From: an uncultured Phycisphaeraceae bacterium
GTDB lineage: Bacteria; Planctomycetota; Phycisphaerae; WQYP01
DNA: 64,000 bases
Direction: 5' to 3'
Assembly (NCBI GenBank): GCA_964610975.1
Contig: CAZSYN010000007.1
Span: forward strand, 26,150 to 90,149
Below the pieces are notes generated by a model. The model ran no database searches and was not told the DNA's origin. It worked only from the letters and a program-made list of their open reading frames with translations. The position numbers were made by a program, and so were the translations under genes. Each line of letters opens with the position of its first letter. The stretch's first letter is position 1. Positions 18,972-48,715 of this stretch are shown one piece after another.

Positions 18972-20490
18972 TGTCTGTCAAATTGCGCACAATTGAGAAG
19001 AGCTTCTCCGCAGGAAGCTTATGGCGAGAGGATGAGGCCTGAGCCGTAGGCGAAGGCCTCATCACCTCACACGCGCGGCTCACGCGGCCGCCGGTTCTGG
19101 GGTCTTCTGCTCGTGTTCTCCTGCTGGTCTCGGATTCTCTCCGCCGGCCTCCTGTTCCCATAGCCGGTTCATGTCCAGGTACTTGCGCGTTCCCCACTTG
19201 GTTCCGGCTACATGCCGCAATCTTGCTGCCGTGAGCATCAGGGCGCTTTGTCCGTCTGGGAACGCTCCCACCACCCGCGTGCGCCGCCGGACCTCCCGGT
19301 TCAGCCGCTCCAGCGGATTGTTGGTTCTCAGGCACCGCCAGTGCTCCCGCGGGAAGGCGTAGTAACTCAAGGTCTCCATGGCGCCTTCAGAGACGATCTG
19401 CGCCGCCTTGGATAGCTTCATCTCGATCAGCTTGGCCGCCACCGCCTGAACCTTCTCCTGGGCCGCGGGCTTGTCTTCCTGCGCGTGGATCGCCTTGAGC
19501 ATGGCCACTACCGGCGCCATCTTGTTATGTGGAACCGCCGTCATCACGTCACGGTAAAAATGCACCACGCACCGTTGCCATTTGGCCTGCGGATAGCACG
19601 CTCCCAACGCTTCCACCAGACCCAGGCACTTGTCGCTGACAAACAGCCTGACTCCCGTCAGACCGCGCTCTTTTAAGTGCCGCATAAAATTCAGCCAGCT
19701 TGCGCCATCTTCCTTGGCCCCTTCGGCCACGCCCAAAACCTCCCGGTAACCGTCCTGATCGACTCCGATGGCAATGAGCACCGCGACATTCTTCACTTCG
19801 CCGCCCCAGCTGCGTTTGAGCCAGATGCCGTCCAGATACACATACGGATGCTGGCCTTCGATCTTCCGGTTCCGCCAACTCTCGATCTGAGAGTAAACCT
19901 TCTGGGCCATCTGGCTGACCGTGCTGGCGCTGGTGCGCACGCCCCAGAGCGCCTCGGTAATGTCTTCCACCCGCCGCATCGAGACGCCTGATAGATACAT
20001 CTCTACCAGGGCTTCTTCGACCGACGATTCGCGGCGCTTGTAGCGCTCGATGATCGCCGTCTCCAGCGGCAACTTCCGCAGCCGGGGCACCTTAAGCGTC
20101 ACTTCGCCCGCCTGGGTCACCAGCTTCCTGGAATAACTGCCCGCGCGGGTGTCCTGGCGCTCGGGCGAGCGTTCGTAACGCTCGGCGTGGCAGAGTCGGT
20201 CGGCCTCGGCATCCAGCAGGCTGTTGAGCGTCTGTTCCACCGTCTCGCGCACCATCTGATCCACGTGCGACCTGACCTTGGCCGCATCCACTGAAAAGGC
20301 CTCTTTCAGCGGTTCTACGGCCGATTCGGTCTGCGGACTGACTTCCTGGGTCACTTCTCTCGTGCCTTCCTGACTCTGATCTGGTAACTTGTCCATTGCA
20401 GCTCTCCTTGTGGGTTTGGGGTTGCTCGTACACAACAACACCTTCCCGCGGAGAGTCTGCTTTTTCAAATCTGCGCATCTTTCAGTACGT
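18972..20490. mobile_element. IS256-family insertion sequence (~1.5 kb) with imperfect ~45-bp terminal inverted repeats
   Basis: One transposase ORF is flanked by related inverted ends at 18975-19020 and 20440-20487 (ctgNNaa.tgcgca...ctccgcNggaag). Confidence 0.7.
19080..20396 (-). CDS. IS256-family (mutator-type) transposase
   Basis: 'YLDGIWLKRSWGGEVKNVAVLIAIGVDQDGYREVLG...' is the MULE/IS256 signature. Start set at 20396 (MDKLPD...) with RBS aaggagag; the ORF-track start is 20468. Confidence 0.85.
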   Translation of the reverse strand: MDKLPDQSQEGTREVTQEVSPQTESAVEPLKEAFSVDAAKVRSHVDQMVRETVEQTLNSLLDAEADRLCHAERYERSPERQDTRAGSYSRKLVTQAGEVTLKVPRLRKLPLETAIIERYKRRESSVEEALVEMYLSGVSMRRVEDITEALWGVRTSASTVSQMAQKVYSQIESWRNRKIEGQHPYVYLDGIWLKRSWGGEVKNVAVLIAIGVDQDGYREVLGVAEGAKEDGASWLNFMRHLKERGLTGVRLFVSDKCLGLVEALGACYPQAKWQRCVVHFYRDVMTAVPHNKMAPVVAMLKAIHAQEDKPAAQEKVQAVAAKLIEMKLSKAAQIVSEGAMETLSYYAFPREHWRCLRTNNPLERLNREVRRRTRVVGAFPDGQSALMLTAARLRHVAGTKWGTRKYLDMNRLWEQEAGGENPRPAGEHEQKTPEPAAA

Positions 20491-32461: not shown

Positions 32462-33139
32462 TCACCAAAAGCGTGGATAATCCCACGCGTAGGTTGTGGC
32501 GGATGTCATCTGCAAAACCTGCCCGCGCGCGGTACCGGCGGCCACGCCGGAGGCCCGGCCGAGCGCAATCAGTGCCCACTGAACACCCGTGCCACCTTGA
32601 CGCCACAAAATGGCGGACGATCCCGCGGTGCCGGCTCCCAGATAGGCAACCTGGCCATCGACAATTTCTACATACGGATAATCATTGGTAGTGTCCGGAA
32701 CGGTGATCTGGACCGGGCAGGCGCCGGCAGCATACGCCATGCCAATAGCTCCGGCTTTCAGCGGTTCTAAATTGATGATGTACCGGCCGATATGCGTCTT
32801 GGTGCGCGGTATGACGCCGGATACCGCCACCTTGTTTTTGAAGGAATCCAGATTGGCATCCGGCGTGATAATCGGGCCATTGACGCCCAGCACGCAGAAG
32901 CGATTGAGATCACTTCCCGTATCGTTGCGTACCAGAATGATGCCGCTGGAACGCTGGGCAGCCTGGGGCGTCGATGAGAGATTCCGCTGGCGGGATTGAT
33001 AATCGAGGGCCGTATCAATGAACGCATTGTACGTGGCGGCAGGGATGCGCAGCTTGTCGCCGGACTTCACTTTTTTAAATGAATCGCTCATGGCAATCTC
33101 TTTGTTCCAAATAAAATGATTCACCACTGAGAAGAACAA
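32462..33139 (-). CDS. Tail / baseplate protein (hypothetical)
   Basis: Assigned by position in the tail module. Confidence 0.4.
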   Translation of the reverse strand: MFFSVVNHFIWNKEIAMSDSFKKVKSGDKLRIPAATYNAFIDTALDYQSRQRNLSSTPQAAQRSSGIILVRNDTGSDLNRFCVLGVNGPIITPDANLDSFKNKVAVSGVIPRTKTHIGRYIINLEPLKAGAIGMAYAAGACPVQITVPDTTNDYPYVEIVDGQVAYLGAGTAGSSAILWRQGGTGVQWALIALGRASGVAAGTARGQVLQMTSATTYAWDYPRFW

Positions 33140-33149
33140 AACAAAGAAT

Positions 33150-33295
33150 CATTCACCACAGAGATTACAGAGCACACAGAGATTAAAAACAAAAAACATT
33201 TTTATTCTTCTCTGTCTCCTTCCTCTGTGTTCTCTGTGCGCTCTGTGGTTAATCTTTTTTATTTTCTCAGCGCCTCCGTGTCTCCGTGGTGAATG
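33150..33295. promoter_or_regulatory. Nested imperfect palindrome built from CACAGAG / CTCTGTG heptamers
   Basis: Three CACAGAG units at 33156-33180 oppose three CTCTGTG units at 33225-33248 around an A/T loop. An outer repeat cattcaccacagag has its reverse complement at 33281-33295. The structure lies between two tail genes. Confidence 0.45.
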
Positions 33296-33297
33296 TG

Positions 33298-34098
33298 TTA
33301 GTTGATAGCCAGTCCTGCAAAATCCGCCAGGTCATAAACCTTTTCGATGTACACCGCCACCGGCTTTTTGATCAGCGTCTTGGATGATGTATCCTCGGCA
33401 TCCTGGTAGCGCACCCACATGTATTCCCAGCCTTTTTTGTTGATGCCCGTGATACTGCCGACGGTCAGATTGGTGACATTGAGCGATCCGGCGAACTTGA
33501 AGGTGATCTCCCAATCATCATCAGCCGATTTGCCGCGCCTCGAACCCGAGGCGCCCAGGAACAGACATTCACCGGCCTGAAAGCCGCGGAACACGGTACT
33601 ATTCGCCTTGCCGGTGAGCACAAACAGCTGGCGCTTGTAGGCGTCCGTCACCACGGAGGCCGACAGGTAATGCGTCTCGGAGAACTGGTAGACCGGGATC
33701 GTAATATCCACGCCTTCGACACTGTCATGCGTGACACCCACGGCGCCGCCCATATCCGGCGCACTGCTGGGGTAGCGATTCACGGTGCCCAGGCTCTGGG
33801 TGATATGCTGTGTCCCGCCGCCGGTATCAAAAGAGAAGGATGATTCACCGGTTTCCGGCTTCTGGTTGTCAGGTGTGACGTAGCGAACCGTGCCATCCCA
33901 CAGAGAGGGGCCGACCGGCTCAATCCGCAGCGTCTGGCGGATCAGACCGTTGTAATCAGTGGGTGCAGTTGCCGCCAGTGACTGCTTGGCCAGCAGATCG
34001 TCGTCCGTACCGGAGACGACATATTGCAACTCCACCTGCGAACTGTCGGCGTCGGTGCTGTCCCGGCTGATGAGTTTTTCAACAACGGTGATAGGCAT
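33298..34098 (-). CDS. Tail protein downstream of the tape measure (distal-tail-like, hypothetical)
   Basis: Assigned by position in the tail module. Confidence 0.4.
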   Translation of the reverse strand: MPITVVEKLISRDSTDADSSQVELQYVVSGTDDDLLAKQSLAATAPTDYNGLIRQTLRIEPVGPSLWDGTVRYVTPDNQKPETGESSFSFDTGGGTQHITQSLGTVNRYPSSAPDMGGAVGVTHDSVEGVDITIPVYQFSETHYLSASVVTDAYKRQLFVLTGKANSTVFRGFQAGECLFLGASGSRRGKSADDDWEITFKFAGSLNVTNLTVGSITGINKKGWEYMWVRYQDAEDTSSKTLIKKPVAVYIEKVYDLADFAGLAIN

Positions 34099-34103: not shown

Positions 34104-34195
34104 TAGGCTGTTAGACTGTAGACTATTAGACGGTTAGGAAGAAGGGTGCCGTGTATGTGTGCCTAATAGCCTAACAGTCTGTAGTCTAACAGTCT
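34104..34195. repeat. IVS-like palindromic element, copy 1
   Basis: Arms taggctgttagactgtagactattagacggttagg and cctaatagcctaacagtctgtagtctaacagtctc. It fills the gap between two genes. Confidence 0.7.
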
Positions 34196-34210
34196 CTTCT
34201 GCCCCTCCTT

Positions 34211-36202
34211 TCAGTCAAACTCCATCTCGTCATCCTGCTCGGCCATATCGACGAGTTTCTTGGTATGCTTGGCCGTGTCTTCGGAGGCTTTGGCAATACG
34301 ATCGGCCATGTTCCCACCAGCCATCCCACGGGCCTCAAAAGCATTAAAGGAACCGACGACGCCGATGGTCTTCTGGGCAATCGTTGGCCCGAGTCCCTCC
34401 AGGTAATCCGGCATGGAGGGCGGCTCCTGTAAACGATCCGGTCCCTGGGCGTTCTTGAGTTGGCGTTTCTTCTTGGCTTCGGCGATGGACTTCTGCCATT
34501 CTTCGCGGGTCTTGTTTAGCTCATCCTGCGATTCCTGCATCTTTTTGGCGTACTCATCGTCCAGTTCTTTCTCTTTATCCTGGGATTCCTGGCCGATCTG
34601 GGTGAGCGCCGCTTCGTGGGTTTGGGTCTCATCAGCGCGTTCCTGCCGACGTTGCTGTTCGCGCGCCTGCAGGGCGGATTGTTTCTGCTTATCGATCTCG
34701 GCATTGGTGGCAGCCAAGTCCTCATCGGCCATCTTCTTGGCCGCATCCACATCTAGGCTTGAATCAAACAATCCCTGCAGATCCAGCAATCGCTTGGCCG
34801 TCCAGTTGATGGCGGTATTCCAGGCCTTCTGGAATCCGGCTGTAAAGCTGGTCCAGACTTTGGATAGGAATGCGGTCGTCTCAATCCAGGCGACTTCAAA
34901 GCCGTGCCAGACGATCTCGCAGGCCGCCAGTGCGCCATAAAACGCGTCATAGGCCATCTTGATAAAGAAGTTTCGGAACGTCAGCCAGACTGATTCGAGT
35001 ACCTGCACTCCCTTGATCCAGGCAATCTTCAAAGTGAGCCACAGAATCTGTGCCGCCAAGGCGATATCGCCGGCCGCCAGAGCATCGGAGATGCCTGCAA
35101 ATGCCTGCGAGGCAAATTCTGATAGCTCCCCAAACCGCTGCCCCAGCCAGTCCAGCGCCTTGCCACCCAGACCGGAGGCGTAAACCAGATACGCTCCCAG
35201 CGCCACCACGGCCGCCGTGACCAGGCCAATCGGAGTCAATAACCAGGCAATCACCGATCCTACCGCACCCAATACCGTACCGACCCCGGTGACAATACTG
35301 GCCAGCACGCCCAATACACCACCGATGAACACGATGGCCTTGCCTAATAGCATGAGCGCCGTGCCGGCGGCCGAAACCACCAGGGCAATTTTGAACACGC
35401 TGACCACCAGATCCTTGTTCTGCTTGATCCAGGTGGTTCCTTTGACCACGATGTCAATGAGAACATTGGCCCACTGCGTCAGCAGCGGTGCAATGGAAGA
35501 ACCGAGCGTATTGGCGAGCTTTTTGAGCACTTTCCACAGGGTAGAGAGGGTTTCTTCCAGTTCAGCGCCGATCTGGACGCCAGCGGCGGAGGCCGTAAGC
35601 CCCAGCCGCCGGGCCTGCTCCTGCATGGCCTCAATACCGGCCGCGCCTTGGGAGAGCATCGGGAGAAGAGACGTACCGTTGCGGCCGAAGATCGCCAGCG
35701 CCAATGCCGCGCGTATCGCTGGGCTTTGAATGCTGGCAAGTTTGTCGGCAATCAATTTGAACTGCTGGTCGGGCGACAGGCCGCGCAGGTCATCCACCGT
35801 CAACCCCAATTGCGCCAGTGCATCGGTGGCAGCTTTCGATCCCATCGCGGCGGCGGCAATGGTCTTTTGCATCTTGCGGATACCCAGTTCCAGCGTGTCG
35901 ATGTCGGAGCCGGAGATCTGAGCGGCATAGCCGAGTTCTGAAAGTGCCTCCACGGAGATGCCTGTCCGCTGGCTCATGCTGAGTAACTCTTTGGAGCCGG
36001 AAGCGGATGCCTTGGCAAAGGCAATCAGCGGCGCGGTAATGACTGACCCGGCAGCGGCCAGCTTTTTACCCCAGCCGCTGATGGCATCGCCGAAGGCCTT
36101 GAGCTTCTTGTTGGCGCTCTGCAGGCCGCGCACGAGTTTGGAATCGTTGACAAACAACTCCACATAGGCGGCCCCGGCGCGTATGGAACGGGCATCGGCC
36201 AT
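34211..36202 (-). CDS. Tail tape-measure protein
   Basis: 663 aa, Ala/Gly-rich, with coiled coil and TM segments. The N-terminus is typical of TP901-family tape-measure proteins. No SD is present; element copy 2 abuts the ATG. Confidence 0.8.
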   Translation of the reverse strand: MADARSIRAGAAYVELFVNDSKLVRGLQSANKKLKAFGDAISGWGKKLAAAGSVITAPLIAFAKASASGSKELLSMSQRTGISVEALSELGYAAQISGSDIDTLELGIRKMQKTIAAAAMGSKAATDALAQLGLTVDDLRGLSPDQQFKLIADKLASIQSPAIRAALALAIFGRNGTSLLPMLSQGAAGIEAMQEQARRLGLTASAAGVQIGAELEETLSTLWKVLKKLANTLGSSIAPLLTQWANVLIDIVVKGTTWIKQNKDLVVSVFKIALVVSAAGTALMLLGKAIVFIGGVLGVLASIVTGVGTVLGAVGSVIAWLLTPIGLVTAAVVALGAYLVYASGLGGKALDWLGQRFGELSEFASQAFAGISDALAAGDIALAAQILWLTLKIAWIKGVQVLESVWLTFRNFFIKMAYDAFYGALAACEIVWHGFEVAWIETTAFLSKVWTSFTAGFQKAWNTAINWTAKRLLDLQGLFDSSLDVDAAKKMADEDLAATNAEIDKQKQSALQAREQQRRQERADETQTHEAALTQIGQESQDKEKELDDEYAKKMQESQDELNKTREEWQKSIAEAKKKRQLKNAQGPDRLQEPPSMPDYLEGLGPTIAQKTIGVVGSFNAFEARGMAGGNMADRIAKASEDTAKHTKKLVDMAEQDDEMEFD

Positions 36203-36206
36203 GGGG

Positions 36207-36330
36207 ATTAGGCTATTGGGAAAGGCATTTAGGCTACAGGCTGTTAGACTATTAGGTCAGGCAATGTCATACACTCCTCTTTTTCCTAACAGCCTAATAG
36301 TCTGCAGTCTAATAGTCTTTCTCAATAGCC
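36207..36330. repeat. IVS-like palindromic element, copy 2
   Basis: Arms ...aggctacaggctgttagactattaggtcagg and cctaacagcctaatagtctgcagtctaatagtc. Confidence 0.7.
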
Positions 36331-36339
36331 TCCTTTCTT

Positions 36340-37113
36340 TCAAGCGGTTTGTCCGGTTAACTCACGAATGTCCTCCACCGGCGAGGTCTTGATCGCCAGC
36401 CAGAACGACCCGCGCACGAGACTTTCAATCAGCACCCATAAGCCGACCGTCAGAATGACCCCGCCGGCCACCCACGGCAGCCAGTGCTGAATCTGGCCGA
36501 CGATCATGCAGGCAACCACCACAGCCAGACCACCGGCGCCGCCGGCAATGGAAATTCGGAAGTCGTGCATCAGGACGCCGACCGCCACGGCAATGCCGAT
36601 CGCGACAATCGCGAGCCATGAGATGGTGCGGAACATCGACTCCCACTTGCTGTTGGCGGCGGCGAGCTTTTTCTCCCAGGCGGTGTTGTCGTCGGCCCGG
36701 CCTTTTTTCTCTGTTTCCAGTGCGGCTGCTGTCTGCTGCATTTCCTTCTTGCCGGCTTGCACTTCGGATTTAAGGGTATCGATGTCCTTGCGGACATCGG
36801 CGAGCGCATTGCCCTGCGCCAGCAGTATCTGGGCGTTTGCAATAATGCGCGACCAGAAGGGATCCAGTGTGGGACGTACGGATTCCGGCGTGGCATCATG
36901 ACCAGCGCGCGCGGCAGTGGCGATTTCGGCTGCCGAACCGCTCACCTGCGTGGCCGCCGACGAGACCTTCTGGCCAATGTCATCAGCATGGCTATCGGCA
37001 TTGGACCAGGAGGATTCGGGCTGGGTTTGCGAGACGCAGCCATAAAAGGCGCCGATGAGCACTATTAATAAGGATAGGAATAACGTCAGTTTGAGAACAT
37101 CACGGTTCATCAA
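36340..37113 (-). CDS. Membrane protein with a coiled coil (N-terminal signal anchor, C-terminal TM helices), possibly a moron
   Basis: 'MMNRDVLKLTLFLSLLIVLIGAFYGC...' followed by multiple TM helices. It is inserted between the chaperones and the tape measure. Confidence 0.45.
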   Translation of the reverse strand: MMNRDVLKLTLFLSLLIVLIGAFYGCVSQTQPESSWSNADSHADDIGQKVSSAATQVSGSAAEIATAARAGHDATPESVRPTLDPFWSRIIANAQILLAQGNALADVRKDIDTLKSEVQAGKKEMQQTAAALETEKKGRADDNTAWEKKLAAANSKWESMFRTISWLAIVAIGIAVAVGVLMHDFRISIAGGAGGLAVVVACMIVGQIQHWLPWVAGGVILTVGLWVLIESLVRGSFWLAIKTSPVEDIRELTGQTA

Positions 37114-37843: not shown

Positions 37844-37853
37844 GGGAACTCCA

Positions 37854-38282
37854 GACTGTTAGGCTGTAGACTGTTGGACTGTTAGGAGAACACAAACATG
37901 CGTGATCACACCAAACTCACCGCTTTCCACAAAGCTGATGCTCTGGCATTGGCGGTCTACCAAGTCACGCGGAGTTTTCCGCGCGAAGAACAGTTTGGGT
38001 TAACCAGCCAGATGCGCCGCGCGGCAGTTTCCGTCGCGTCGAACATCGTCGAAGGCTGCGCTCGGCGTACCGAAGCTGATTATCTACACTTTCTTGATAT
38101 GGCATTCGGATCACTCCGTGAACTAAGCTATCAGTTGTCTTTAGCTTTCCGACTGGGCTACCAAACCCAGGAGACTTACGATCCAGTCCGATTACAGGCC
38201 GAAGAATGTTCCAAGGTGCTTGCAGCGCTGATCCGCTCTTTCCGCAGTGCCTAACAGTCAAATAGTCTGTAGCCCAACAGTA
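37854..38282. repeat. IVS-like palindromic element, copy 3, carrying a cargo ORF
   Basis: The left arm gactgttaggctgtagactgttggactgttagg is identical to copy 4. The right arm is cctaacagtcaaatagtctgtagcccaacagt. The arms flank the plus-strand four-helix-bundle gene. Confidence 0.7.
37898..38254 (+). CDS. Four-helix-bundle protein (PF05635 / TIGR02436; 23S rRNA intervening-sequence protein family; family of the DGR accessory protein Avd)
   Basis: 'FHKADALALAVYQVTRSFPREEQFGLTSQMRRAAVSVASNIVEGCARRTEADYLHFLDMAFGSLRELSYQL' matches the family consensus. The RBS GGAG is formed by the end of the element arm. It runs opposite to all neighbouring genes. Confidence 0.8.
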   Translation: MRDHTKLTAFHKADALALAVYQVTRSFPREEQFGLTSQMRRAAVSVASNIVEGCARRTEADYLHFLDMAFGSLRELSYQLSLAFRLGYQTQETYDPVRLQAEECSKVLAALIRSFRSA

Positions 38283-38288
38283 TGGGGC

Positions 38289-38744
38289 CTACGGCCCCAC
38301 GGTCTTCCACACCGGCGGATTAACCGAATACGTCGGCTTGGCCGTCACCTTCACACTGATGGCATCTTCCAGCGGTTCATCCCGGCTGAAGTCCGTGATC
38401 ATGCAGTCGGCCCACAAGCCTTGGTTGCCATTGGAGCCGGCGCCGGTGATCGGGCCATCCATCACGGCCAGGCCGATGATCGAATTATTAAAATACGCAT
38501 CCTTGATGGCTGTAAAGCCGGCGTCGGCCGTGTCCCACACCATCTCAAACTCAATGGTTCCTTCCTTGAGCGTGCCGGCGGTGGCCTTCCAGCCATTGTT
38601 GGCACGCGTGGTGACATCCGCTTCACCTTTCTGCAAGGTCAGCGTGACATTTTTGACGTTGGTCAGCTCGGTCCAGGTCGGCGTACCGCCGATGCCTGCG
38701 GCGCAGAAGTACAATTTTGCATCTAAGCCAAACTTTACACCCAT
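38289..38744 (-). CDS. Major tail (tail tube) protein
   Basis: The 151-aa size, composition and position match TP901-1 / lambda-V-like tube proteins. Confidence 0.6.
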   Translation of the reverse strand: MGVKFGLDAKLYFCAAGIGGTPTWTELTNVKNVTLTLQKGEADVTTRANNGWKATAGTLKEGTIEFEMVWDTADAGFTAIKDAYFNNSIIGLAVMDGPITGAGSNGNQGLWADCMITDFSRDEPLEDAISVKVTAKPTYSVNPPVWKTVGP

Positions 38745-38757: not shown

Positions 38758-38895
38758 ATAGACTGTTAGGCTGTAGACTGTTGGACTGTTAGGAGTAATT
38801 AAGACTATTAGACTACAGACGGTTAGGCGGTTAGGAAAAAAACCAAAGACGTCGTTGCCCGACCTAACTGCCTAACAGTCTGTAGCCCAACTGCC
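38758..38895. repeat. IVS-like palindromic element, copy 4
   Basis: Same 33-nt left arm as copy 3, additional units, and right arm ctaactgcctaacagtctgtagcccaactgcc. Confidence 0.7.
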
Positions 38896-39288
38896 TTACC
38901 TCACTGATCCGGCCCACATGGCAGGCAGACGGTCTTTTACTTGTTCCAGTGCCGGTCCCATGAACGGCCTCCGGTCGTAACGCTCGCGTTTGTACTTGCC
39001 ACCGAACTCATGCGCTGCGCCGGAAGTCCCGGCCACCTGACGATCCGGCCCGATCACCACGGACTGCTTATCTTTCACCACTGCGTATTTGATCGCGTTA
39101 CGCATCCGCCCTTTGCGTGTGTTAGGCGGCGTACCAGAAGGAGATTTCTTGGGCGACTTTTTGATCGAATGCCGCGCGATTAAACGTACGGCAGCGCCCG
39201 CGTGGCCGAGATTACGGATGTTGGCCTTTTTGGCAGCCCACCGAATCTTGCTGTTATCCGTCTTGATCTTGGCTTTGGCCTGAATCAT
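38896..39288 (-). CDS. Tail completion / virion morphogenesis protein (HK97 gp10-like, putative)
   Basis: Basic 130-aa protein upstream of the major tail gene. Confidence 0.4.
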   Translation of the reverse strand: MIQAKAKIKTDNSKIRWAAKKANIRNLGHAGAAVRLIARHSIKKSPKKSPSGTPPNTRKGRMRNAIKYAVVKDKQSVVIGPDRQVAGTSGAAHEFGGKYKRERYDRRPFMGPALEQVKDRLPAMWAGSVR

Positions 39289-39294
39289 GGTTAT

Positions 39295-39437
39295 GTGAGA
39301 CTGTAGGCTGTTAGGCTATTAGGCTGTTAGGTCAGACAATGACGCCTTGGACTCTTTTCCTAACAGCCTAACAGTCTGTAGTCTAATAGTCTTAATTCCT
39401 CCCAAAAGTCAAACAGCCTGTAGCCTAATAGTCTTCC
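39295..39437. repeat. IVS-like palindromic element, copy 5
   Basis: Arms gagactgtaggctgttaggctattaggctgttaggtcag and cctaacagcctaacagtctgtagtctaatagtc, plus an extra half-arm. Confidence 0.7.
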
Positions 39438-39889
39438 TACCGTGCCACTCTGTACGTGACCGTCAGCACGCTGGTAAAGACCTGCTTCTGCTCCAAATGC
39501 TCGGGCGAATAAATCGGAACATTTTCGGTTTTCACCCAGATCGCAGAACCTTCACAGCCATCCTTGCCGAGTACCAACCGCCTGAGACGCAGGTAATCGG
39601 CGATCTGCTCTGCCAAGGCCATCAGGGGATCCAGTTCTGATGTACTGATTGAGCTGATTTTCTTCTGAACCGCCACATCCACTGACACATCATGCTGATT
39701 GATATTGCGGCCCAAACTTGCAATCTCAATCTTTTTGGGCACCACTGTCACTCTTAAAGTTTTGAGCTGCGCCAGATCATATTCTGGTTTGTACTGACGC
39801 TCCGCCGTAAACCCCTGTGCAAATGTCCCGGCCTGCGCGGTATTGAGTACATTAACAATCGCATTGGCAACCGATACAACCATGCTCAT
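39437..39889 (-). CDS. Head-tail joining / tail terminator-like protein (hypothetical)
   Basis: Assigned by position in the head-tail module. Confidence 0.35.
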   Translation of the reverse strand: MSMVVSVANAIVNVLNTAQAGTFAQGFTAERQYKPEYDLAQLKTLRVTVVPKKIEIASLGRNINQHDVSVDVAVQKKISSISTSELDPLMALAEQIADYLRLRRLVLGKDGCEGSAIWVKTENVPIYSPEHLEQKQVFTSVLTVTYRVAR

Positions 39890-41051: not shown

Positions 41052-41291
41052 TCAGCCTCCGACGATGATGAGTTTCCAAAGAGCCGACACTGCCAGCGAT
41101 ACCACGGCGCCGGCAATAACCCAAAGCACGCGCGAACGCGTGCGTTCAGAGGCTTCCAGCCGATCCAGCCGCGCATAAATACCCGGCTTGCCGTTGCCAC
41201 GGATGGCCTCATCGAGCCGATCAAGCTTGACGTGGATCTCGGCTAGTTCCTGCCGATGCAGGCGGTCCAGTTCTTCTTCAGCGTGTGTCAT
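41052..41291 (-). CDS. Small coiled-coil protein with a C-terminal TM helix
   Basis: '...RLDRLEASERTRSRVLWVIAGAVVSLAVSALWKLIIVGG'. Confidence 0.4.
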   Translation of the reverse strand: MTHAEEELDRLHRQELAEIHVKLDRLDEAIRGNGKPGIYARLDRLEASERTRSRVLWVIAGAVVSLAVSALWKLIIVGG

Positions 41292-41665
41292 GATGCGTCA
41301 ACCTGCTTCGTGTGTATCCGGTACGTTCGGCGATAAGGATCGCTGTAACGCCAGCAGGGCTCATCACCCGGCGCCATGACTTCGTACACATAAGAATGGT
41401 CGCCATCAGTCTCGGTGATGCGATCTCCGCGCTGGGGTGTTACCGCCTGGCCACCCAGCACCAAATCACTGGCCGTAATCAAAAAGTCTCGGCTCTCCAC
41501 GCGCAGTGCGGCGCCGGTGCCGTCATCTACTTCAAAGACGGTCTGTCCGATGGTGGCAGCGATTTGCAGTGTCTGCTCACCACGCTGATATACAACCATG
41601 CGCGACATGAATTTTGCGCGCTGATTCTGAAGCCAGTCAGATGCTTGTTGAAGAAGATCAGGCAT
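41288..41665 (-). CDS. Head-tail connector / adaptor protein (gp6-like, putative)
   Basis: 125-aa protein placed after the capsid and decoration genes. Confidence 0.4.
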   Translation of the reverse strand: MPDLLQQASDWLQNQRAKFMSRMVVYQRGEQTLQIAATIGQTVFEVDDGTGAALRVESRDFLITASDLVLGGQAVTPQRGDRITETDGDHSYVYEVMAPGDEPCWRYSDPYRRTYRIHTKQVDAS

Positions 41666-41820
41666 AGGCTGTTGAAACAGACTATTAGACTACAGGCGTT
41701 TTGGCTGTTAGGAGAGAAATCAATCGCACAAATGTATGACCCAACAGTCAAATGGCCTGTGGTCTAACAGCCTTTCCTTCTGACCAAACAGTCAAACAGT
41801 CTGTAGCCTAACAGTCTCCT
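41664..41820. repeat. IVS-like palindromic element, copy 6
   Basis: Arms ataggctgttgaaacagactattagactacaggcgttttggctgttagg and ccaacagtcaaatggcctgtggtctaacagcc, plus ccaaacagtcaaacagtctgtagcctaacagtctcc. Confidence 0.7.
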
Positions 41821-41822: not shown

Positions 41823-42152
41823 TCACTGGCTCAGCCGCGCACGAACCTTTTCATCATCATCCGAGGCCGCGCGAACCGTTTTGCCGATTCCCTTATTGCC
41901 TGCGGAAGTCGTGGTCGCCTGCTGCGCGGTGGCATTCCAATAAAGAATTGCCCCAACCGCGATGGCCGTACCAGCGCCCTTGGCCTTGGGAAAATCAAAA
42001 ATACCATCCACGACCAGACCGCCGGTGGTATTGGCCGGAATCGGCCGAGCGGCCACACCCACCAGTTCCCCCTGTACCACTACCGATCCAGCAGCAACAT
42101 CCGCAGCGGGGGTGTAATCAATCGCCGATCCATCACTGACAAAAGTCGCCAT
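41823..42152 (-). CDS. Head decoration / DUF2190-like protein (putative)
   Basis: Gly/Ala-rich 109-aa protein directly after the capsid gene. Confidence 0.4.
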   Translation of the reverse strand: MATFVSDGSAIDYTPAADVAAGSVVVQGELVGVAARPIPANTTGGLVVDGIFDFPKAKGAGTAIAVGAILYWNATAQQATTTSAGNKGIGKTVRAASDDDEKVRARLSQ

Positions 42153-42208
42153 GTGCGAGTTTCCTTTTTTTAATTCATCATTCAGACTTCAGCATTCAGA
42201 ATTCGCTC

Positions 42209-44314
42209 TTACGCTTCTCCTTTGTTCTTCACGCCCGCGCGCGGATCCTGCATCGCCACGCCAAAATCGTGATAACCGCGCACCGTGATGCCCAGCACAT
42301 TGGGATTGGCTTCAATCGTTTCAATGGTGGGCGACTCATTACCATTCAGGAACGCGACTTCAATTAGCGGCAGGTCGTTGGCATCCGCCAGCAGGTACCA
42401 GGCCTTCTGGCTGGAGCCAGCGTACCGGGCATTGCCCAGGTATCGACTGACTTCCACCCGGTAGGCATTCTGGTGCGGGTTGGCGATCGGCATTTTGGTA
42501 TTGCTGGTCGTATCGCGGATTTCCGTCGACTTATAAAGCTGCGTCGCCATGGCCGAGAGTGACGTCGGCACCAGCAATACTTTCGGATCGACGCTGATCG
42601 GCTTGCCATCCGAATCGACCTGATCATTAAACGCCTGCACTGCATTACTCAGGGAATCAATTCCCAGCACCGTACCGGCGCCGGAGAGATAATTCTTATT
42701 GGCGGCGGCGAAGATGGCAGCATTGTTCAGGAAGATCGTCCAGAACACATCATTGATCTTCAGACCCGACCCACGGCCGAGCTTGCGCGGCACGGTGGTG
42801 ATGGCGCCCAGATCATCATTGATGATGTCGCGCCGTTCAATCGTCAGCATCAGGCCGTAAGTGTCGGCCTTGTTGGTGTAGATTTCATTACCGAGGGTGC
42901 CGTGCTTAAGCTCACCGCCGGGCGCAATCAATTCATACTGATCGGTACCGATCAAGCGGTAGCTCGTGACGGTCTTAAAGTCCGTCACACTGCGGACCGC
43001 ACAGATATTCCGCCAGGTCCGTTCAACCGAGAAGAATCCGTCGAGCAGGAACTTATTACCGACATTCGAGAGAATCGGCGCGATATCAATCGTGGCATAT
43101 CCCGCCTCAATCTGCGCTTTGCTCGGGAAGGCCATCGCCATGATGGTATGCGGATCACTGCGGAAGGTGCGGCCGATGTAACCATTGACCATCGCCGCTT
43201 CCACCATCAGGTCCTGCAGGCTGATTCCGTTCCGGAATCGTTTGCTGGCGGCATCCAGATCCTGCTCGCTGCAGTGGTTTCCCGGTTTGGATAAACCTGC
43301 CGAGAGCAGACAGGCCGCCTCCAGCATGGCCGATGTCGTCGGTCCAGGCGAAGCAAAGCTAAAGCCCATCGGCGCACCCATGACATTGCCACCCGCCACG
43401 GGCGCCTTGGGCCGACTGGCGCGCAGAACTTCCAGTTCCGTCTTGGTCTGATCCCAGCCATCACGAATCGCCTGCGCTTCAATATCTGTACACTTGCCAT
43501 TGCAGATTCGGCGAATGCCGGCGATGCGGTTGGTCTCCGCAAGCGCTTCGGCGCGAATCTGATCCATACTGCGAACATCCGCTGCATTGACCGCAGATAC
43601 GGCGGCCGCCTGAACCGGCGGAGCGGCAACAGCGGTGCCAGCAGAACCAGTACCTGTCGACGTGCTGGCGGATGTTGAATTGGTAGTGGTGGAAGTGTTT
43701 GTGGTAATACCGTCCATCGTGGCGGTCTCCTTTTCATGTACTGTATCGATCTGCGACGCGGCCACCTGCGCAGAGGTGTTGCCGTCGGCGCCCAGGTCTA
43801 CAAAACTGATCTCGCCCAGTGTTGCCTTGCGGACAACATTCACCGGGCCCTCAAACGTCCGGCCGTTGACAATGGCCTTCTGGCCATCTTTGACGAATTC
43901 AAACTCTTCCACTGACGCGCCAATACTGGCCTGCCAGGGGAAGCCATTCTTGGAACTGACGACAATCTCCCGCGCCGCCGGCGTATCCCGTGAGACCACG
44001 CCAGCCGCGATGAGTTGCCCGGCCTCTACGGAGATGGCATCAGTATGACCGACACCCGCACCCGCGCTGGCATCATGGCCAAAGCGGATCGGCCTGTTTT
44101 GACTCGGGATCGCCAGACCTGCCAGATCCACAATCACCGGGAAGCGCCAGCCGGCGATCCTCATCGGCCCGCCGGTGTAGGCCACCATGCGAAAGCGCGG
44201 CAAGGCTGGCGCAGCACCGGTTTCGCCCGCTGGCATGCCTGCCTCAATTTGAAAGCTCGCCAGCAGCGCCAGCGGACCGGCCTGATTGTCATTCTTCTTG
44301 GGCGACTGACTCAT
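42209..44314 (-). CDS. Prohead protease – major capsid protein fusion (HK97-fold)
   Basis: Start at 44314 (MSQSPKK) with an AGGAGA RBS. The N-terminal ~200 aa is protease-like (HD... and S.G segments). A Thr/Ser-rich linker follows, then a capsid-like C-terminal ~450 aa. Confidence 0.6.
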   Translation of the reverse strand: MSQSPKKNDNQAGPLALLASFQIEAGMPAGETGAAPALPRFRMVAYTGGPMRIAGWRFPVIVDLAGLAIPSQNRPIRFGHDASAGAGVGHTDAISVEAGQLIAAGVVSRDTPAAREIVVSSKNGFPWQASIGASVEEFEFVKDGQKAIVNGRTFEGPVNVVRKATLGEISFVDLGADGNTSAQVAASQIDTVHEKETATMDGITTNTSTTTNSTSASTSTGTGSAGTAVAAPPVQAAAVSAVNAADVRSMDQIRAEALAETNRIAGIRRICNGKCTDIEAQAIRDGWDQTKTELEVLRASRPKAPVAGGNVMGAPMGFSFASPGPTTSAMLEAACLLSAGLSKPGNHCSEQDLDAASKRFRNGISLQDLMVEAAMVNGYIGRTFRSDPHTIMAMAFPSKAQIEAGYATIDIAPILSNVGNKFLLDGFFSVERTWRNICAVRSVTDFKTVTSYRLIGTDQYELIAPGGELKHGTLGNEIYTNKADTYGLMLTIERRDIINDDLGAITTVPRKLGRGSGLKINDVFWTIFLNNAAIFAAANKNYLSGAGTVLGIDSLSNAVQAFNDQVDSDGKPISVDPKVLLVPTSLSAMATQLYKSTEIRDTTSNTKMPIANPHQNAYRVEVSRYLGNARYAGSSQKAWYLLADANDLPLIEVAFLNGNESPTIETIEANPNVLGITVRGYHDFGVAMQDPRAGVKNKGEA

Positions 44315-45851
44315 CGTCATTCTCCTGATCCACAGGTGTACTTGCTGGGGTTGAGGTCGTCGGCGTCGCAACCAACCCGAGTTCCTTCATCAACGCCATT
44401 TCCTTGGCTCTCTGGCGCAGCTCAGCTTCCCAGTCGCGTCCCTGGCGCGCATATTCATAGGCAAGGGTGGTGGTATTGCTGGCCAGGCGCGTGGCCTGAG
44501 CATTGGCTTCCTTGGCCGGGTCTACATGTTCCTGGCCATCCCAAAACCACTGGTGGAGAGGCAAGGCTGTTTGGCTGCAGGCTGTTTGACTGTTAGCTTC
44601 GCCTAACAGCCCAACAGTCAAACGGCCTAACAGTCCTTCCACTAATCTGGCTTCGCTCAACCAAGCCCGCAAAATCGGATCGAGTACCACGCGACCCATA
44701 TGCGCCTGATCGACGCGGATCGATTTGTAATAGACCTGATGATCCAGACGTCCCGACGCGTAGTTGTAGCCCGATGAATTGCCCGCCGCGACATTAAACG
44801 GCATGTTCAGGCAGCGAGAGATTTCGTTGAGGATTTCCTTTTTGAATTCACCGTAAGTCGTCGTCGGCTGCTCGGCGGTGACCTGACCCAGTTTCCATCC
44901 ACCGGGCAAGACCGTTGCCATGCGCCGTTCCAACTCCACGATATCCATCGGTTCAACTGGATCGGCCTCGCCGTTGGCGGGCGCATCGGTATACAAAACC
45001 GCTGCAAAATCCGCAGCCGTCTCCGCTGCCGCAATCACCGCAAGCGTGTAACGCCGCAATTGGGCAAACAGTGGCAGCGCGGCCGTGATCTCTGGAATCC
45101 CCCGGCTCTGGCCGGGACGATCAGTACGGTAATAATGAATCATCGCACTGGCTGGGATCCGATCAAAGCCAGAAAGCCACGATCCGAAGAGTGAGTTATC
45201 ACCTGGATGCGCACGAAGCAAATGATATTCAACAGGATTCCCGTAGTTGTCATACACAATGCCATCAGTCAGGCTGTTAGGCTGTAGACTGTTAGACTGT
45301 TTGTGCCTAATAGCCAAACGGTCTAAAAAGCTAACAGCCTCCCACGGCGTGCTGATCTGGTCCGCTTCAAAGAGCTTCAGATCCAGCTTCACCGGCGAAT
45401 CAATCATGGGATTGGCTACCAGCATGCCAAAGACTTCACCCGATTCGGCGCGCGAAGCGCGCATGGTGCGGAGCTTTTCAGGGAGCCGAATTGCCTCCGC
45501 CCAGTGCATAAACTCCTGCTCGGCCACCCGGTTGGCTGCATCCTGCTCGGTGAGCATCTGCAAGCGCGGGCCGGTACCGACGACATCATTAGCGAGCGTG
45601 AGCACAATCCCACGGGCATACGAGTTGTTCGCTACCTCGTAGCGCGCACGAGCACGCAAGGTCTTGCGTACGGCCGCACTGTTGGCGGCGTTCGCCGAGA
45701 GATGATCGGCGGCGGCCCAGTGGCGACGGTTATCGTCATTGGTGGCCGCCGCATCATAGCGGCCGCCAATCCGCATGGGCACGTGCACAAAGCGCGTGAC
45801 CCGCTGCACCGATTGCGCCGGCAGAAGTTTTTTGAGTAGTCCCATCATCAC
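44289..45851 (-). CDS. Portal protein
   Basis: The 520-aa size, position after the terminase, and the '...RYEVANNSYARGIV...' N-terminus are typical of lambda/HK97-type portals. It contains two in-frame repeat-element insertions. Confidence 0.7.
   Translation of the reverse strand: MMMGLLKKLLPAQSVQRVTRFVHVPMRIGGRYDAAATNDDNRRHWAAADHLSANAANSAAVRKTLRARARYEVANNSYARGIVLTLANDVVGTGPRLQMLTEQDAANRVAEQEFMHWAEAIRLPEKLRTMRASRAESGEVFGMLVANPMIDSPVKLDLKLFEADQISTPWEAVSFLDRLAIRHKQSNSLQPNSLTDGIVYDNYGNPVEYHLLRAHPGDNSLFGSWLSGFDRIPASAMIHYYRTDRPGQSRGIPEITAALPLFAQLRRYTLAVIAAAETAADFAAVLYTDAPANGEADPVEPMDIVELERRMATVLPGGWKLGQVTAEQPTTTYGEFKKEILNEISRCLNMPFNVAAGNSSGYNYASGRLDHQVYYKSIRVDQAHMGRVVLDPILRAWLSEARLVEGLLGRLTVGLLGEANSQTACSQTALPLHQWFWDGQEHVDPAKEANAQATRLASNTTTLAYEYARQGRDWEAELRQRAKEMALMKELGLVATPTTSTPASTPVDQENDDESVAQEE
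44571..44650. repeat. IVS-like palindromic element, copy 7 (in frame within portal)
   Basis: gcaaggctgtttggctgcaggctgtttgactgttagc / ttcgcctaacagcccaacagtcaaacggcctaacagtcc, translated as 'LLGRLTVGLLGEANSQTACSQTA'. Confidence 0.65.
45261..45333. repeat. IVS-like palindromic element, copy 8 (in frame within portal)
   Basis: aggctgttaggctgtagactgttagactgtttg / gcctaatagccaaacggtctaaaaagctaacagcctcc, translated as 'EAVSFLDRLAIRHKQSNSLQPNSLTDG'. Confidence 0.65.
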
Positions 45852-46223: not shown

Positions 46224-46418
46224 TTATGCCCGTTCGCGCGTAGGGATGCGCCGGCCACAATAACGACACTCACGCAGACGCATGATGCAACCCGGCCGGG
46301 CACGCGTATACACAACATCCAGATGCCGGCAACCGCACTTGGGACATGCAAGACCACGCGGAACGGGTGCATGGTCCGTCCTTGCGGAATTTTCGTTGAT
46401 GGGTAATGGGTCTCTCAT
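46224..46418 (-). CDS. C4 zinc-ribbon protein (NrdR / Ogr-Delta-like finger), translationally coupled to terminase
   Basis: 64 aa. 'CPKCG...VVYTRARPGCIMRLRECRYCGRRIPTRE' carries two CxxC pairs ~22 residues apart. It has an ATGA overlap with the TerL stop and a GGAGG RBS. Confidence 0.55.
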   Translation of the reverse strand: MRDPLPINENSARTDHAPVPRGLACPKCGCRHLDVVYTRARPGCIMRLRECRYCGRRIPTRERA

Positions 46419-48715
46419 CTCCGCCTCCCCTGGATATCGGATAAACGCACGCGCGCTTTGCGTGGCGCTTCCTTGCTGTCCGTGCCAAACAAGACCGCTC
46501 CCTGCATGCTCGCACCGACCGCGCAACCGACCAGACAATCCAGCCAGTGGTTATCCAGGCCCGGCGTGCGGAGTTTCCATTCATCAAGCTGACGGCCACG
46601 ACCGGATGTCTTGATGCAATACTCGGCGGCCAGATGCTCTGACACAAGCCGATGATCTGTACCAGCAAAGAGTGACAGACATCCCGGATCACCCATCGGC
46701 ACCGCCAAGCGTGCATGCACAAAACTCTTCCAGTAGTTGGTATCAATCAGCGCATACCGCACAGCGCGCTTGCCCTGCAGGTTGGGGATGCGCCAATGCA
46801 GCCCGGTGCGATCTCCCTTGCGCGGCTTGTAATCAGAGAACGGCGTACTGGCCGCGCCGACATAACGCCCGTGGCTGGGCATCACAATGGCCGAGTGTGC
46901 CGATTGTCGGCAGAACTGATACACCACATCGGTACTGTTGCCCCAGTTGGCGTCAATCAAACACCGCTCAATGGTCATCTCGGCGCCATCATCACGCTGG
47001 AACTTACGGGATAAATGCACTGCCGTCAGGGCCTCCAGCCCAGCGTAGATCGCCCCTTCCTGGCCGGTGCCGCTATGAACCAACATCAACGTCCGCCGAG
47101 CATCACGTAATGTAAAATACGCTCGCTTCTGGTCCGGATACTCCCCATAGTCCAGCACGTACCCAGTAAAATCATCCTCCCAACCGCAGATCAGCCAATA
47201 CAGCAGCGTCCCCTGCACATCCACAAACATCGTCAGATGGCTCACGCCGACCGGCAATTCGCCACGCTTCATACCATTGGTCTTCTCGGCAATCGTGTCC
47301 GCCGAGAGCATGTCGGATCCGAGCGTTTCCTCCGGTAGCGGTTCATTTTGGTATTCAGCCCAGAACGCGGCGTCCCCCTGATCCAGCTTGAGATTCATGG
47401 CATGCTGAATGGCCGAGAGTTCATCGGGATTGTACCGATGAGACCAGGCGACTTTGGCTCCCGCATCCATATCGATCTGGTTGGCATGATAAAACTCAGT
47501 CGCTTCGCCGACGCCACGGTCATTGCGCTGACCATCCGCACGGAGCTGGGCATACTGCTGCCAGAGTTTTTCGTTAGCGGGGAAAACATACACCATCTTC
47601 GTGCGCTGGCCCTGCCACTGCGGATGTTTATCGCGATTCAGGATCCGATCCGCCATATCATCCGGTCTCACGACCGTCAGCGTCATGAGACCAGCAATCT
47701 TGCGTCCCGGACCCGCCAACCCCAAAATCGCACCCGCCAGGATCTGCTCACGCGTGACACACTGGGAGGGTGACCGTGCCGATTCATCGGTTTGAGGATC
47801 ATCCAGCAGCACCAGCGACGGGCGCACCGTCTTGCCATCGGCCCGCTTGTGCTTCATGCCACGGATACGACCGGTGATGCCGGCGACCTTAATCACCGCA
47901 CCCGAGGCCGCGCTCCCCGGTATCGTCGGCAGCGCAATATCCTTGGCCGTCCAGCCAATATGGGTGCGCGCCCCCTGGTAAAGCTGCCCGGCTGCGCGCT
48001 GGTGGATCCCTTCGAGCGCCCGGATGGGCCCACAGGCCTCAGAAAAATCCTCCTCCAGCAGGTCGTTATTCTCCAGTTCCGATTTGATCGACTCGAGCAT
48101 ATCCCCGGCATGCTCTTCGTCCGCGCCGATCAGGGCCACAAATTCCCGGTGACCGTAGAGTAGCGCCCATAGGCAGGCAGTCTCGCACAAGGTGGTTTTG
48201 CCCGAGCCACGCGGCATGGCCATCGCAAACAGACCGCCATTGAGGACTGCCTCTTCAATCTTGGCAATGACTTTGAGGTGATCGTCCGACCAGGCCAGAT
48301 GAAACGTCTGTAGAAAGTACAACTCGCAAAATAGACGGAAGGACCGGCGGCAACGTTCCTTACGTTCCAGGTCCACCGGCGCATGGATCCAGTTCTCCTG
48401 GGTAATATCGCGCGAGGATTCCGACATCCCCCGGCTGCGCGCATTGACCGCCTCTTTGTGCGCCGCGTAATTCTTCTCCGTCCACCCCGGCTCAAAGGAT
48501 TCATGCCGCGCATGAAACAGCCACGCCGCGTAACGGACAAGATCGATACGTCGCCCATCACCGATGCGGTACGCCGCTCGGTTCAGGTGCCGATACACCA
48601 CATGCGGCCCAGCCACCTCGCCCAGCGGCGTGGAGTTCAGCAGCCGCACGACCTCGGCCACGCGAAGTTGTCGGGGATCCATTTTCACCTGGATTGCATC
48701 TCCCGCATCAGCCAC
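46415..48715 (-). CDS. Terminase large subunit with a ~200-aa N-terminal extension
   Basis: Walker A 'AMAMPRGSGKTT' and Walker B-like 'LVLLDDPQTDE', followed by a C-terminal nuclease region. Confidence 0.8.
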   Translation of the reverse strand: MADAGDAIQVKMDPRQLRVAEVVRLLNSTPLGEVAGPHVVYRHLNRAAYRIGDGRRIDLVRYAAWLFHARHESFEPGWTEKNYAAHKEAVNARSRGMSESSRDITQENWIHAPVDLERKERCRRSFRLFCELYFLQTFHLAWSDDHLKVIAKIEEAVLNGGLFAMAMPRGSGKTTLCETACLWALLYGHREFVALIGADEEHAGDMLESIKSELENNDLLEEDFSEACGPIRALEGIHQRAAGQLYQGARTHIGWTAKDIALPTIPGSAASGAVIKVAGITGRIRGMKHKRADGKTVRPSLVLLDDPQTDESARSPSQCVTREQILAGAILGLAGPGRKIAGLMTLTVVRPDDMADRILNRDKHPQWQGQRTKMVYVFPANEKLWQQYAQLRADGQRNDRGVGEATEFYHANQIDMDAGAKVAWSHRYNPDELSAIQHAMNLKLDQGDAAFWAEYQNEPLPEETLGSDMLSADTIAEKTNGMKRGELPVGVSHLTMFVDVQGTLLYWLICGWEDDFTGYVLDYGEYPDQKRAYFTLRDARRTLMLVHSGTGQEGAIYAGLEALTAVHLSRKFQRDDGAEMTIERCLIDANWGNSTDVVYQFCRQSAHSAIVMPSHGRYVGAASTPFSDYKPRKGDRTGLHWRIPNLQGKRAVRYALIDTNYWKSFVHARLAVPMGDPGCLSLFAGTDHRLVSEHLAAEYCIKTSGRGRQLDEWKLRTPGLDNHWLDCLVGCAVGASMQGAVLFGTDSKEAPRKARVRLSDIQGRRR

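Follow-up and report, generated by a model that had tools for sequence, protein, structure and literature searches.

The portal gene and its two in-frame repeats

This work concerns a phage portal gene that contains two palindromic repeats in frame, in a prophage of an uncultured Phycisphaeraceae bacterium (assembly GCA_964610975.1, contig CAZSYN010000007.1, positions 26,150 to 90,149). The whole stretch of 64,000 nt that was analysed is referred to as the window, and positions are numbered from its first nucleotide. The gene is an open reading frame (ORF) that matches the Pfam profile PF05136 with an E-value of 1.5e-58 and 199 bits, the cut-off being 32.9. An AlphaFold model of its product, obtained from a 139-sequence alignment, reaches a predicted local distance difference test score (pLDDT) of 86.2 and a predicted template modeling score (pTM) of 0.86, and in Foldseek it resembles the portals of phages Chi (8vhx) and lambda (8xow, 8k39, and 8k38), with template modeling (TM) scores of 0.70-0.78 and E-values of about 1e-21. 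A first model, built from 27 close homologues only, had a pLDDT of 52.7 and was discarded for that from the deeper alignment. With a profile score above the curated cut-off and a portal fold, the ORF is a portal of the lambda family. The gene and the repeats inside it are the following:

44289-45851, minus strand: portal gene of the lambda family, a 520-codon ORF hosting both in-frame element copies
45271-45342, minus strand: portal copy at site A, residues 171-194 (EAVSFLDRLAIRHKQSNSLQPNSL); a 72-nt hairpin of arms only, loop of about 4 nt
44560-44640, minus strand: portal copy at site B, residues 405-431; an 81-nt hairpin of arms only, loop of 6 nt

The frame runs uninterrupted through both copies, in agreement with an earlier note on this DNA that had recognized two in-frame palindromic copies in the 520-codon ORF. 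That note placed them at 45261-45333 and 44571-44650; both are present, although the boundaries given by the fold are shifted by a few bases. Each copy was also thought to add about 27 residues, which is too many: the elements encode 24 residues at site A and about 20 at site B, where the non-native part corresponds to residues 409-428 (GRLTVGLLGEANSQTACSQT), and the net gains of 18 and 12 residues are lower still because 6-8 native codons were overwritten. On the mRNA strand, the site A copy folds with -39.2 kcal/mol (z -4.2) and the site B copy with -39.9 kcal/mol (z -3.1), none of 200 shuffles being equally stable in either case. Both keep imperfect stems of about 30 bp, with one arm near-canonical and its partner much more diverged.

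The repeat is built from arms of about 34 nt, in which 8-nt units (AGRCTRTT) follow one another in tandem, CTGTAG or CTACAG stands in the center, and TTAGG forms the end, and an element consists of an arm, a loop, and an inverted arm starting with CCTAAC. A degenerate 29-mer pattern of the arm has 11 matches in the window, compared with none in 100 shuffles. Moreover, an nhmmer profile built solely from the 14 arms outside the portal gene recovers the four portal arms (45270-45302, E = 2.4e-9; 44563-44596, E = 6.6e-8; 44602-44635, E = 2.8e-3; 45306-45325, E = 5.5e-3), with no further match at E < 1 over the 64 kb. Since a profile that lacks the portal arms still finds all of them, the portal segments belong to the repeat family. 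The peptide signature that the earlier note described as common to the portal segments and to translations of the intergenic copies was reproduced (PNSLTVCSLTV, QSNSLQPNSL), and it follows trivially from the shared DNA. The GC content of the portal segments is 46% and 50%, versus 58% in the rest of the gene and 41-45% in the intergenic copies.

Lineage specificity and replacement of native loops

A database search returned thousands of portal relatives, the closest being from Planctomycetota. When the query is aligned with 26 close homologues, it alone has additional residues at site B, and additional residues at site A are seen only in it and in two homologues (P0005 and P0040). Also, loop lengths were collected from about 184 homologues, namely 120 database proteins and up to 80 IMG/VR loci. 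At site A, the distance between the anchors ADQ[IV] and DG[IV][IV] has a mode of 13-15 residues and is 29 in the query, and at site B, between AWL.EA and WFWDG, the mode is 21-22 and the query, with 33 residues, is the unique maximum. The same positions stand out in the 139-sequence alignment, which comprises the query and 138 diverse homologues with identities down to 43%: its only internal runs with occupancy below 20% are residues 175-185, 187-191, and 409-420. Of the 17 residues from 175 to 191 at site A, 16 have an occupancy of 0-14%, residue 186 being aligned at 88%, and at site B the occupancy is 0-4% for residues 409-420.

The nearest relative, P0002, has an identity of 0.912 over 444 gap-poor columns and ordinary loops (site A, TLSITNSV; site B, PQEMRRQDISL), and about 180 further homologues also have short native loops at both sites. 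The comparison with close homologues that the earlier note had proposed thus finds both segments to be lineage-specific, a relative at 91% core identity being free of them.

A DNA comparison with nine relatives shows how the site B segment is joined to the gene. The native EGLL(PQSLRRTG)ALPEHQW is replaced by EGLL(GRLTVGLLGEANSQTACSQT)ALPLHQW, with 8 native codons overwritten, and the outer end of the stem reaches into the native GGN CTG CTG and GCC CTG codons, which encode part of EGLL and ALP. At site A, the element contributes 24 codons in a place that would natively hold about 6. Portal homology is unbroken on both flanks of both segments.

Position of the segments in the portal structure

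Mapping onto a structural model, also proposed beforehand, places the segments at the only internal dips in confidence and at length-variable connections. The dips cover residues 171-190 (pLDDT 56-61) and 411-430 (pLDDT 61-63), with flanks of 86-95, being 88-93 around site A and 86 and 95 on the two sides of site B. In the AlphaFold model, site A lies between strands 156-161 and 198-200, and site B directly follows a 40-residue helix (364-403) and precedes a strand (433-436) and the C-terminal helices. According to canonical portal topology, both sites would be located in the wing region. No other connections of the portal vary strongly in length. Moreover, in the profile alignment the Chi portal carries its own 8-residue insertion at site B, which supports that this connection tolerates insertions and deletions.

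Stop codons and the open frame

In the canonical arm, TAG or TAA returns at intervals of 8 nt, so that each of the three frames is hit in turn. None of the five complete intergenic copies is free of stops in any frame of the mRNA strand, a single copy-by-frame combination out of 30 is open, and about 11% of the frames are open in synthetic arm-only hairpins. The portal copies are stop-free in exactly one frame, the portal's own. In them, the would-be in-frame stops are altered, from TAG to TTG in CGT TTG GCT at site A and in CGT TTG ACT at site B, and from TAA to AAA in CAC AAA CAG. Because stops recur in all frames, only stop-free (or mutated) copies could persist in the portal. This pattern is consistent with what selection for an intact portal predicts, whether the changes preceded or followed the insertion. 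The earlier note had proposed insertion followed by selection for portal function; the segments are indeed lineage-specific and open only in the used frame, but a native loop was replaced and the insertion was not a clean one. Among 123 canonical arm matches elsewhere, none was found inside a long ORF, in a test that is biased because the pattern itself contains TAA.

The S23p cassette and the repeat copies in the prophage

The prophage covers about 30-64 kb of the window. Its minus strand carries, in this order, genes for the terminase large subunit (46415-48715) and the portal, a 720-aa ORF containing the capsid domain, and genes for cement, head-tail joining, tail tube, and further tail proteins. 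Replication, methylase, and helicase genes are found at 49-64 kb; the first 30 kb of the window hold non-phage genes, including two insertion sequence (IS) transposases. The repeats outside the portal gene occupy six intergenic sites (seven hairpins or cassettes) of the head-tail operon, between 34.1 and 41.8 kb:

37852-38285, plus strand: full-length cassette, formed by an arm, a 118-aa S23p/Avd-like ORF (37898-38254), and an inverted arm
34104-34196, no strand assigned: intergenic hairpin copy between genes 34211-36202 and 33298-34098, RNA fold z -5.1
36209-36333, no strand assigned: intergenic hairpin copy between genes 36340-37113 and 34211-36202, -54.8 kcal/mol, z -7.4
38759-38897, no strand assigned: intergenic composite copy with two left arms and one right arm, between gene 38896-39288 and the tail tube gene 38289-38744, z -5.5
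39289-39435, no strand assigned: intergenic composite copy with one left arm and two right arms, between genes 39437-39889 and 38896-39288, z -3.8
41666-41818, no strand assigned: intergenic composite copy flanked by the cement gene (41823-42152) and the head-tail joining gene (41288-41665), z -4.7

A hairpin-forming repeat is found at nine element sites, intergenic and intragenic, with folds of z -3.1 to -7.4. All arm matches fall within 34.1-45.3 kb, around the cassette, and the arm profile has none in the replication module or in the 30 kb of host DNA. A permissive Rfam search of 33-47 kb gave no family for the elements and no rRNA, and promoter and terminator scans at the elements gave nothing, with counts at shuffle level.

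The cassette is located between the tail tube gene, which matches PF06199, and the next tail gene. Its arms lie at 37852-37886, the first arm being 35 nt long, and at 38250-38285, and its ORF is antisense to the phage genes and ends in a TAA within the CCTAAC of the arm. The encoded protein matches PF05635, the family of the 23S rRNA intervening-sequence protein (S23p), with an E-value of 5e-35, and more weakly bAvd (E = 4.8e-7). Of the two site A arms of the portal, the better one shares 94% identity with the arm of the cassette at 37852-37883, and the cassette is likely the source of the arm-only copies. Global alignment of the short copies to the cassette ends, made to see whether they might derive from it by internal deletion, was uninformative on this point, and the two have a loop motif in common, TCAGRCAATG...CTCTTTT. 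On the same contig, outside the window, a second S23p paralogue (P0272) is recorded that is 95% identical to that of the window, so the cassette is multi-copy in this genome.

Several neighboring features were also noted. In the 720-aa ORF (42209-44371), which, as called, has 83 nt in common with the portal ORF, the capsid domain PF25209 is confined to residues 423-716, and the N-terminal 420 residues have no assignment and include a T/S/A-rich linker; the ORF is probably a scaffold or protease fused to the capsid protein. A tandem heptamer (AATTCAG, 4.7 copies) occupies 42172-42204, in the small gap that separates the capsid ORF from the cement gene, and a related phage (L165, see below) has a repeat-hairpin at the matching place. 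A separate, unrelated repeat-hairpin lies at 33140-33295, between genes 32462-33139 and 33298-34098; it has arms of 9-nt units (CACAGAG/CTCTGTG), an A/T-rich apex, and a fold of -60.9 kcal/mol (z -7.7), and at 33.14-33.27 kb it gives sub-threshold, plant miRNA-like Rfam matches on both strands. The non-phage part includes the IS3-type (rve) and IS256-type (Transposase_mut) transposase genes, at 4512-5477 and 19080-20468, and a Fic-domain gene at 799-1848; a hidden Markov model of the arm run over the 64 kb detects no arm-like repeats near any of the three.

Distribution of arms and S23p genes outside the window

In bacterial contigs representing one genome per species, the arm 29-mer is found at 111 loci, the estimated chance expectation being about 0.25. 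These loci belong to metagenome-assembled genomes (MAGs) labelled as Deltaproteobacteria (Desulfobacterales, Smithella), Bacteroidales, Lentisphaerae, Kiritimatiellae, Verrucomicrobia, Spirochaetes, Ignavibacteria, Elusimicrobia, Calditrichaeota, and Planctomycetales. The 29-mer is nearly exact across about ten phyla (L002-L112), often on several contigs of one MAG. Most of the loci are ORF-less; some have a small GC hairpin and a T-run in the loop, and others are long, pure tandem arrays. Viruses rarely carry it, with 6 stretches in 2.9 million viral contigs (L193-L198). An S23p homologue is found no more than 170 nt away at 13 of these 111 loci, and full-length examples have the organization seen in the window, that is, an arm, ATG CGN GAY CAY, the ORF, and an inverted arm.

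The association was also examined in reverse, with 72 S23p relatives of 62-82% identity that were taken from metagenomes (L199-L278) without reference to arms. Flanking inverted repeats with a score of at least 16 are present in 57 of them (79%), versus 0 in a reversed control or as the maximum of 20 shuffles. The arms of these relatives consist of tandem 7-9-nt units of many types, for example GGCTGTAGG, GGCTGGAGG, GGCTGAAGG, and GGCTGTTAGG, and the unit differs between lineages. Inverted tandem-unit arms may be a general property of the S23p family outside rRNA, one that is apparently undescribed; in the literature searched, an S23p ORF within an inverted-repeat stem is described only for rRNA.

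Related phages and their hairpins at site A

A comparison with related phages suggests a long residence of the cassette. In L165, whose portal is about 62% identical to that of the window, an S23p ORF with 69% identity lies antisense at the orthologous position (L165:16898-17245), next to the same neighboring gene (MKTFTDNAGRTWTI... in one and MKTFVDNAGRTWTI... in the other), with flanks that are 71% and 64% identical. Also, L178 (10099-10287) and L179 (16913-17116) have an antisense S23p ORF about 5.5 kb downstream of the portal. Because it is orthologous in L165 and present in these two, the cassette is an old resident of the phage lineage. The arms of the L165 cassette are of the type GGGCTGTT/CCAACAGYC, and the two ORF-less hairpins of this phage (13513-13586 and 18829-18918) use the same unit type; further related phages have hairpins of other tandem-unit types in the same module. 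A strict scan for octamer clusters, which implied that relatives lack elements, was set aside as misleading, given that the hairpins of the relatives use other unit types.

At exactly the place of site A, a hairpin is also found in L001, which encodes P0005 (P0040 being similar), and in L137. The interiors differ, with GAAGG and GCAGG units and a fold of -52.6 kcal/mol in L001. The carriers are not mutual nearest relatives: the core identity of the window portal is 0.804 with P0005 (rank 16) and 0.686 with L137 (rank 166), and each carrier has insert-free neighbors at 0.80-0.92 identity. The earlier note had considered that the same segments in unrelated portals would speak for ancestral sequence. 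Hairpins of the same length do occur at site A in two other lineages, yet the segment is not ancestral portal sequence, because the interiors differ, near relatives lack it, and the sequences of the other carriers are themselves tandem-unit palindromes of the same superfamily. From these comparisons, site A would be a target hit more than once or a segment that phages have exchanged.

In L001, further arms of the GACTGCAGACTGCAG type are read in frame at 9936-10093 and 11458-11564. One of them is at the annotated N-terminus of the portal (LLRTADCRLRTV), and another hairpin straddles the portal stop and the start of the next gene and is translated in both tails. In L137, no other such element was detected in 15 kb with a home-made hairpin finder, an insensitive one that missed several known copies.

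Comparison with known palindromic repeats and S23p elements

[quoted passage not shown] Like RPEs, the elements described here are short hairpin repeats that occur between genes and in frame within ORFs, where they add a tolerated peptide segment (PMC10969869). However, they belong to a prophage of a Planctomycetota-type host, differ in sequence, and have a motif that is present in many other phyla; the portal copies are of 72-81 nt, with arms of tandem 8-nt units, versus about 100-150 bp for RPEs; and they have an ORF-bearing parent, the S23p cassette, and replace native loop codons. Membership in RPE families 1-10 is not indicated, the relatives being from Planctomycetota and Rfam giving no match, a judgment made without an RPE consensus alignment; among the 80 of the 111 arm loci displayed with organism titles, there is no Rickettsia. 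The earlier note took in-frame tolerance as the hallmark of RPEs, and this holds as an analogy, not as membership. As far as sequence can tell, the portal elements are arm-only versions of an S23p cassette, RPE-like in behavior but not RPEs.

A parallel to the cassette itself is offered by the S23p-bearing intervening sequences of 23S rRNA in Coxiella, Leptospira, and others, where a PF05635 ORF also lies in the loop of an inverted-repeat stem inside a transcription unit, and whose stems are excised by RNase III (PMC4990558). In contrast to them, the cassette does not sit in helix 25 or 45 of 23S rRNA but lies antisense within the late operon of a phage, its arms are tandem repeats, and it has spawned ORF-less copies, two of which are translated as protein. 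The four-helix-bundle superfamily of the cassette protein also includes Avd, the accessory protein of diversity-generating retroelements (DGRs), and the homology of S23p and Avd is discussed in PMC10053308. However, the best match is PF05635 and not bAvd, and the window has no template/variable repeat pair; the hypothesis of a DGR was rejected, as there is no reverse transcriptase in the window.

Correia elements, whose inverted repeats are cut by RNase III (PMC10969869), and repeats of the enterobacterial repetitive intergenic consensus (ERIC) and repetitive extragenic palindromic (REP) types are, like the elements in the window, ORF-less palindromes co-transcribed in operons, with stems of an RNase-processed kind. 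Unlike these repeats, including the Correia elements of Neisseria, those of the window show no TA duplication, integration host factor (IHF) site, promoter, or terminator signal, no transposase or REP-associated tyrosine transposase (RAYT) is present in the window, and the copies are clustered in one 11-kb operon instead of being dispersed. REPs and bacterial interspersed mosaic elements (BIMEs) are characterized by palindromes of 20-40 nt headed by GTAG or CGTC and by a RAYT gene in the genome. The arms have an internal CTGTAG, not a terminal GTAG, and no Y1 transposase is found among the genes of the window. With MITEs, the elements share terminal inverted repeats, small size, the lack of a transposase, and multiple copies, but they show no target-site duplications and their parent encodes a 118-aa PF05635 four-helix-bundle protein, not a transposase. 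The ends of the IS3 and IS256 transposases of the window are unrelated to the arms.

Discussion

In our view, these data are probably explained by hairpins of the cassette-arm type that came to lie in the portal frame, are specific to this lineage, and are tolerated, a local spread and effects on RNA being proposed in addition. ORF-less arm copies have accumulated around the cassette, as five intergenic hairpins and two arm-only hairpins in the portal, and the clustering suggests that they spread locally from the resident cassette or were homogenized from it. The portal copies have overwritten 6-8 native loop codons and leave the reading frame open, and the segments would be tolerated passengers in loops of the wing region instead of new functional modules. 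By analogy with processed stems, those of the portal are putative RNase III substrates and may lower the portal mRNA relative to the overlapping downstream capsid message.

Nevertheless, several observations weigh against this explanation. Both events replace a native loop and are not simple insertions, and a replacement is not predicted by a cut-and-paste model. Also, target-site duplications are absent, with no direct repeats at the junctions of eight copies, and no mobilizing enzyme (transposase, RAYT, or reverse transcriptase) is tied to the elements within the window. In addition, the TAG-less unit variants (TTGG, TTTG) are also present in intergenic copies, so the missing stops need not be mutations that followed insertion. 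Finally, the site A regions of the window, L001, and L137 share an anchor-to-anchor length of 117 nt, the start GAGGCTGT, and a similar end, CAGCCT, which could mean an older shared feature or a recombinational exchange instead of a fresh local insertion.

A different possibility, to which we give a minor share, is that the portal hairpins are functional RNA elements, acting as RNase III sites or ribosome roadblocks that lower portal synthesis versus that of the capsid and so would help to set the portal-to-capsid stoichiometry of roughly 12:400, the loops being the price. Such a role would agree with the retention of stems of about 30 bp despite the coding constraint, with the restriction of the elements to the late operon, where they lie between most cistrons, and with the hairpins of other tandem units that related phages have in the same module. 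Also, three portal lineages keep a hairpin of different sequence at the same site, and both the stems of S23p intervening sequences and Correia elements are RNase III substrates (PMC4990558, PMC10969869). However, most relatives, including the nearest one (91%), do without a portal hairpin, so it is not needed for this type of phage. Moreover, one arm of each portal copy is degenerating, with an E-value of about 1e-3 versus 1e-8 to 1e-9 for its partner, and the mutated stop positions, which fall in internal loops, are not accompanied by compensatory changes.

The shared length of site A raises a second alternative, somewhat less likely than the former, in which the hairpin at site A is old, was passed on by inheritance or by exchange between portal genes, and was homogenized by gene conversion with the arms of the window phage. 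Besides the length, the first 8 nt are identical in the window, L001, and L137, the 3′ end is similar, the same native residues are missing, and the interior of each carrier resembles arm types found elsewhere. Nonetheless, the carriers are not closest relatives (0.686 and rank 166 for the window and L137), and insert-free neighbors at 0.80-0.92 have loops of the family pattern, as TLSITNSV in P0002. The old hairpin would then demand many precise losses, each restoring a native-looking loop, and the 15 kb of L137 offer no other such element as a conversion donor.

It is improbable that the added loops serve an adaptive role in the protein, for example by presenting an altered surface to portal-sensing defense proteins or to capsid and scaffold partners. 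Although both segments are at variable connections of the predicted wing region and site A was struck repeatedly in different lineages, the repeat DNA determines the peptide sequence, which is not conserved between carriers beyond the shared DNA ends, and the predicted confidence of the loops is low. Least probable of all is a defective prophage, with the portal as a still-open decaying remnant, or an assembly artifact at the repeats, for even with IS3- and IS256-type transposases nearby in the host part and a source that is probably a metagenome-derived contig, in which repeats can mislead assemblers, no strongly conserved portal position is lost (the 27-sequence alignment includes the window portal, so invariant residues are present by definition), the frame is open only as used, the would-be stops being specifically absent, portal homology is seamless on both sides of both segments, and the neighboring morphogenesis and replication genes are all intact ORFs.

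Returning to the explanation by tolerated cassette-type hairpins, both the occurrence of palindromic repeats in frame and the RNase III processing of Correia elements and intervening sequences are already known, and the more unusual part of the present case is the cassette behind the portal insertions. A broader and more speculative proposal, which we hold only tentatively, is that S23p genes within inverted arrays of 7-9-nt units constitute an unrecognized, cross-phylum class of selfish cassettes residing in transcription units such as 23S rRNA and phage late operons because their stem would be RNA-processed. Their arms would shed locally spreading hairpins, two of which would have been absorbed into the portal as internal mRNA processing sites that tune its output, and the kinship with Avd would make an RNA or cDNA intermediate possible.

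The in-frame survival of palindromes is best known from metabolic genes of Rickettsia, and here it concerns a dodecameric and essential phage assembly protein. Two portal loops, one of them struck in three lineages, are marked as natural insertion-tolerant sites, which would be useful for the engineering or tagging of lambda-type portals. Moreover, the repeats are tied to an S23p/Avd-like cassette with the anatomy of the 23S rRNA intervening sequences, whose origin and mobility have been in question since the 1990s. The finding of arms as near-identical 29-mers across phyla, together with the 79% of S23p relatives that have arms, would give a testable handle on the role of this gene family.

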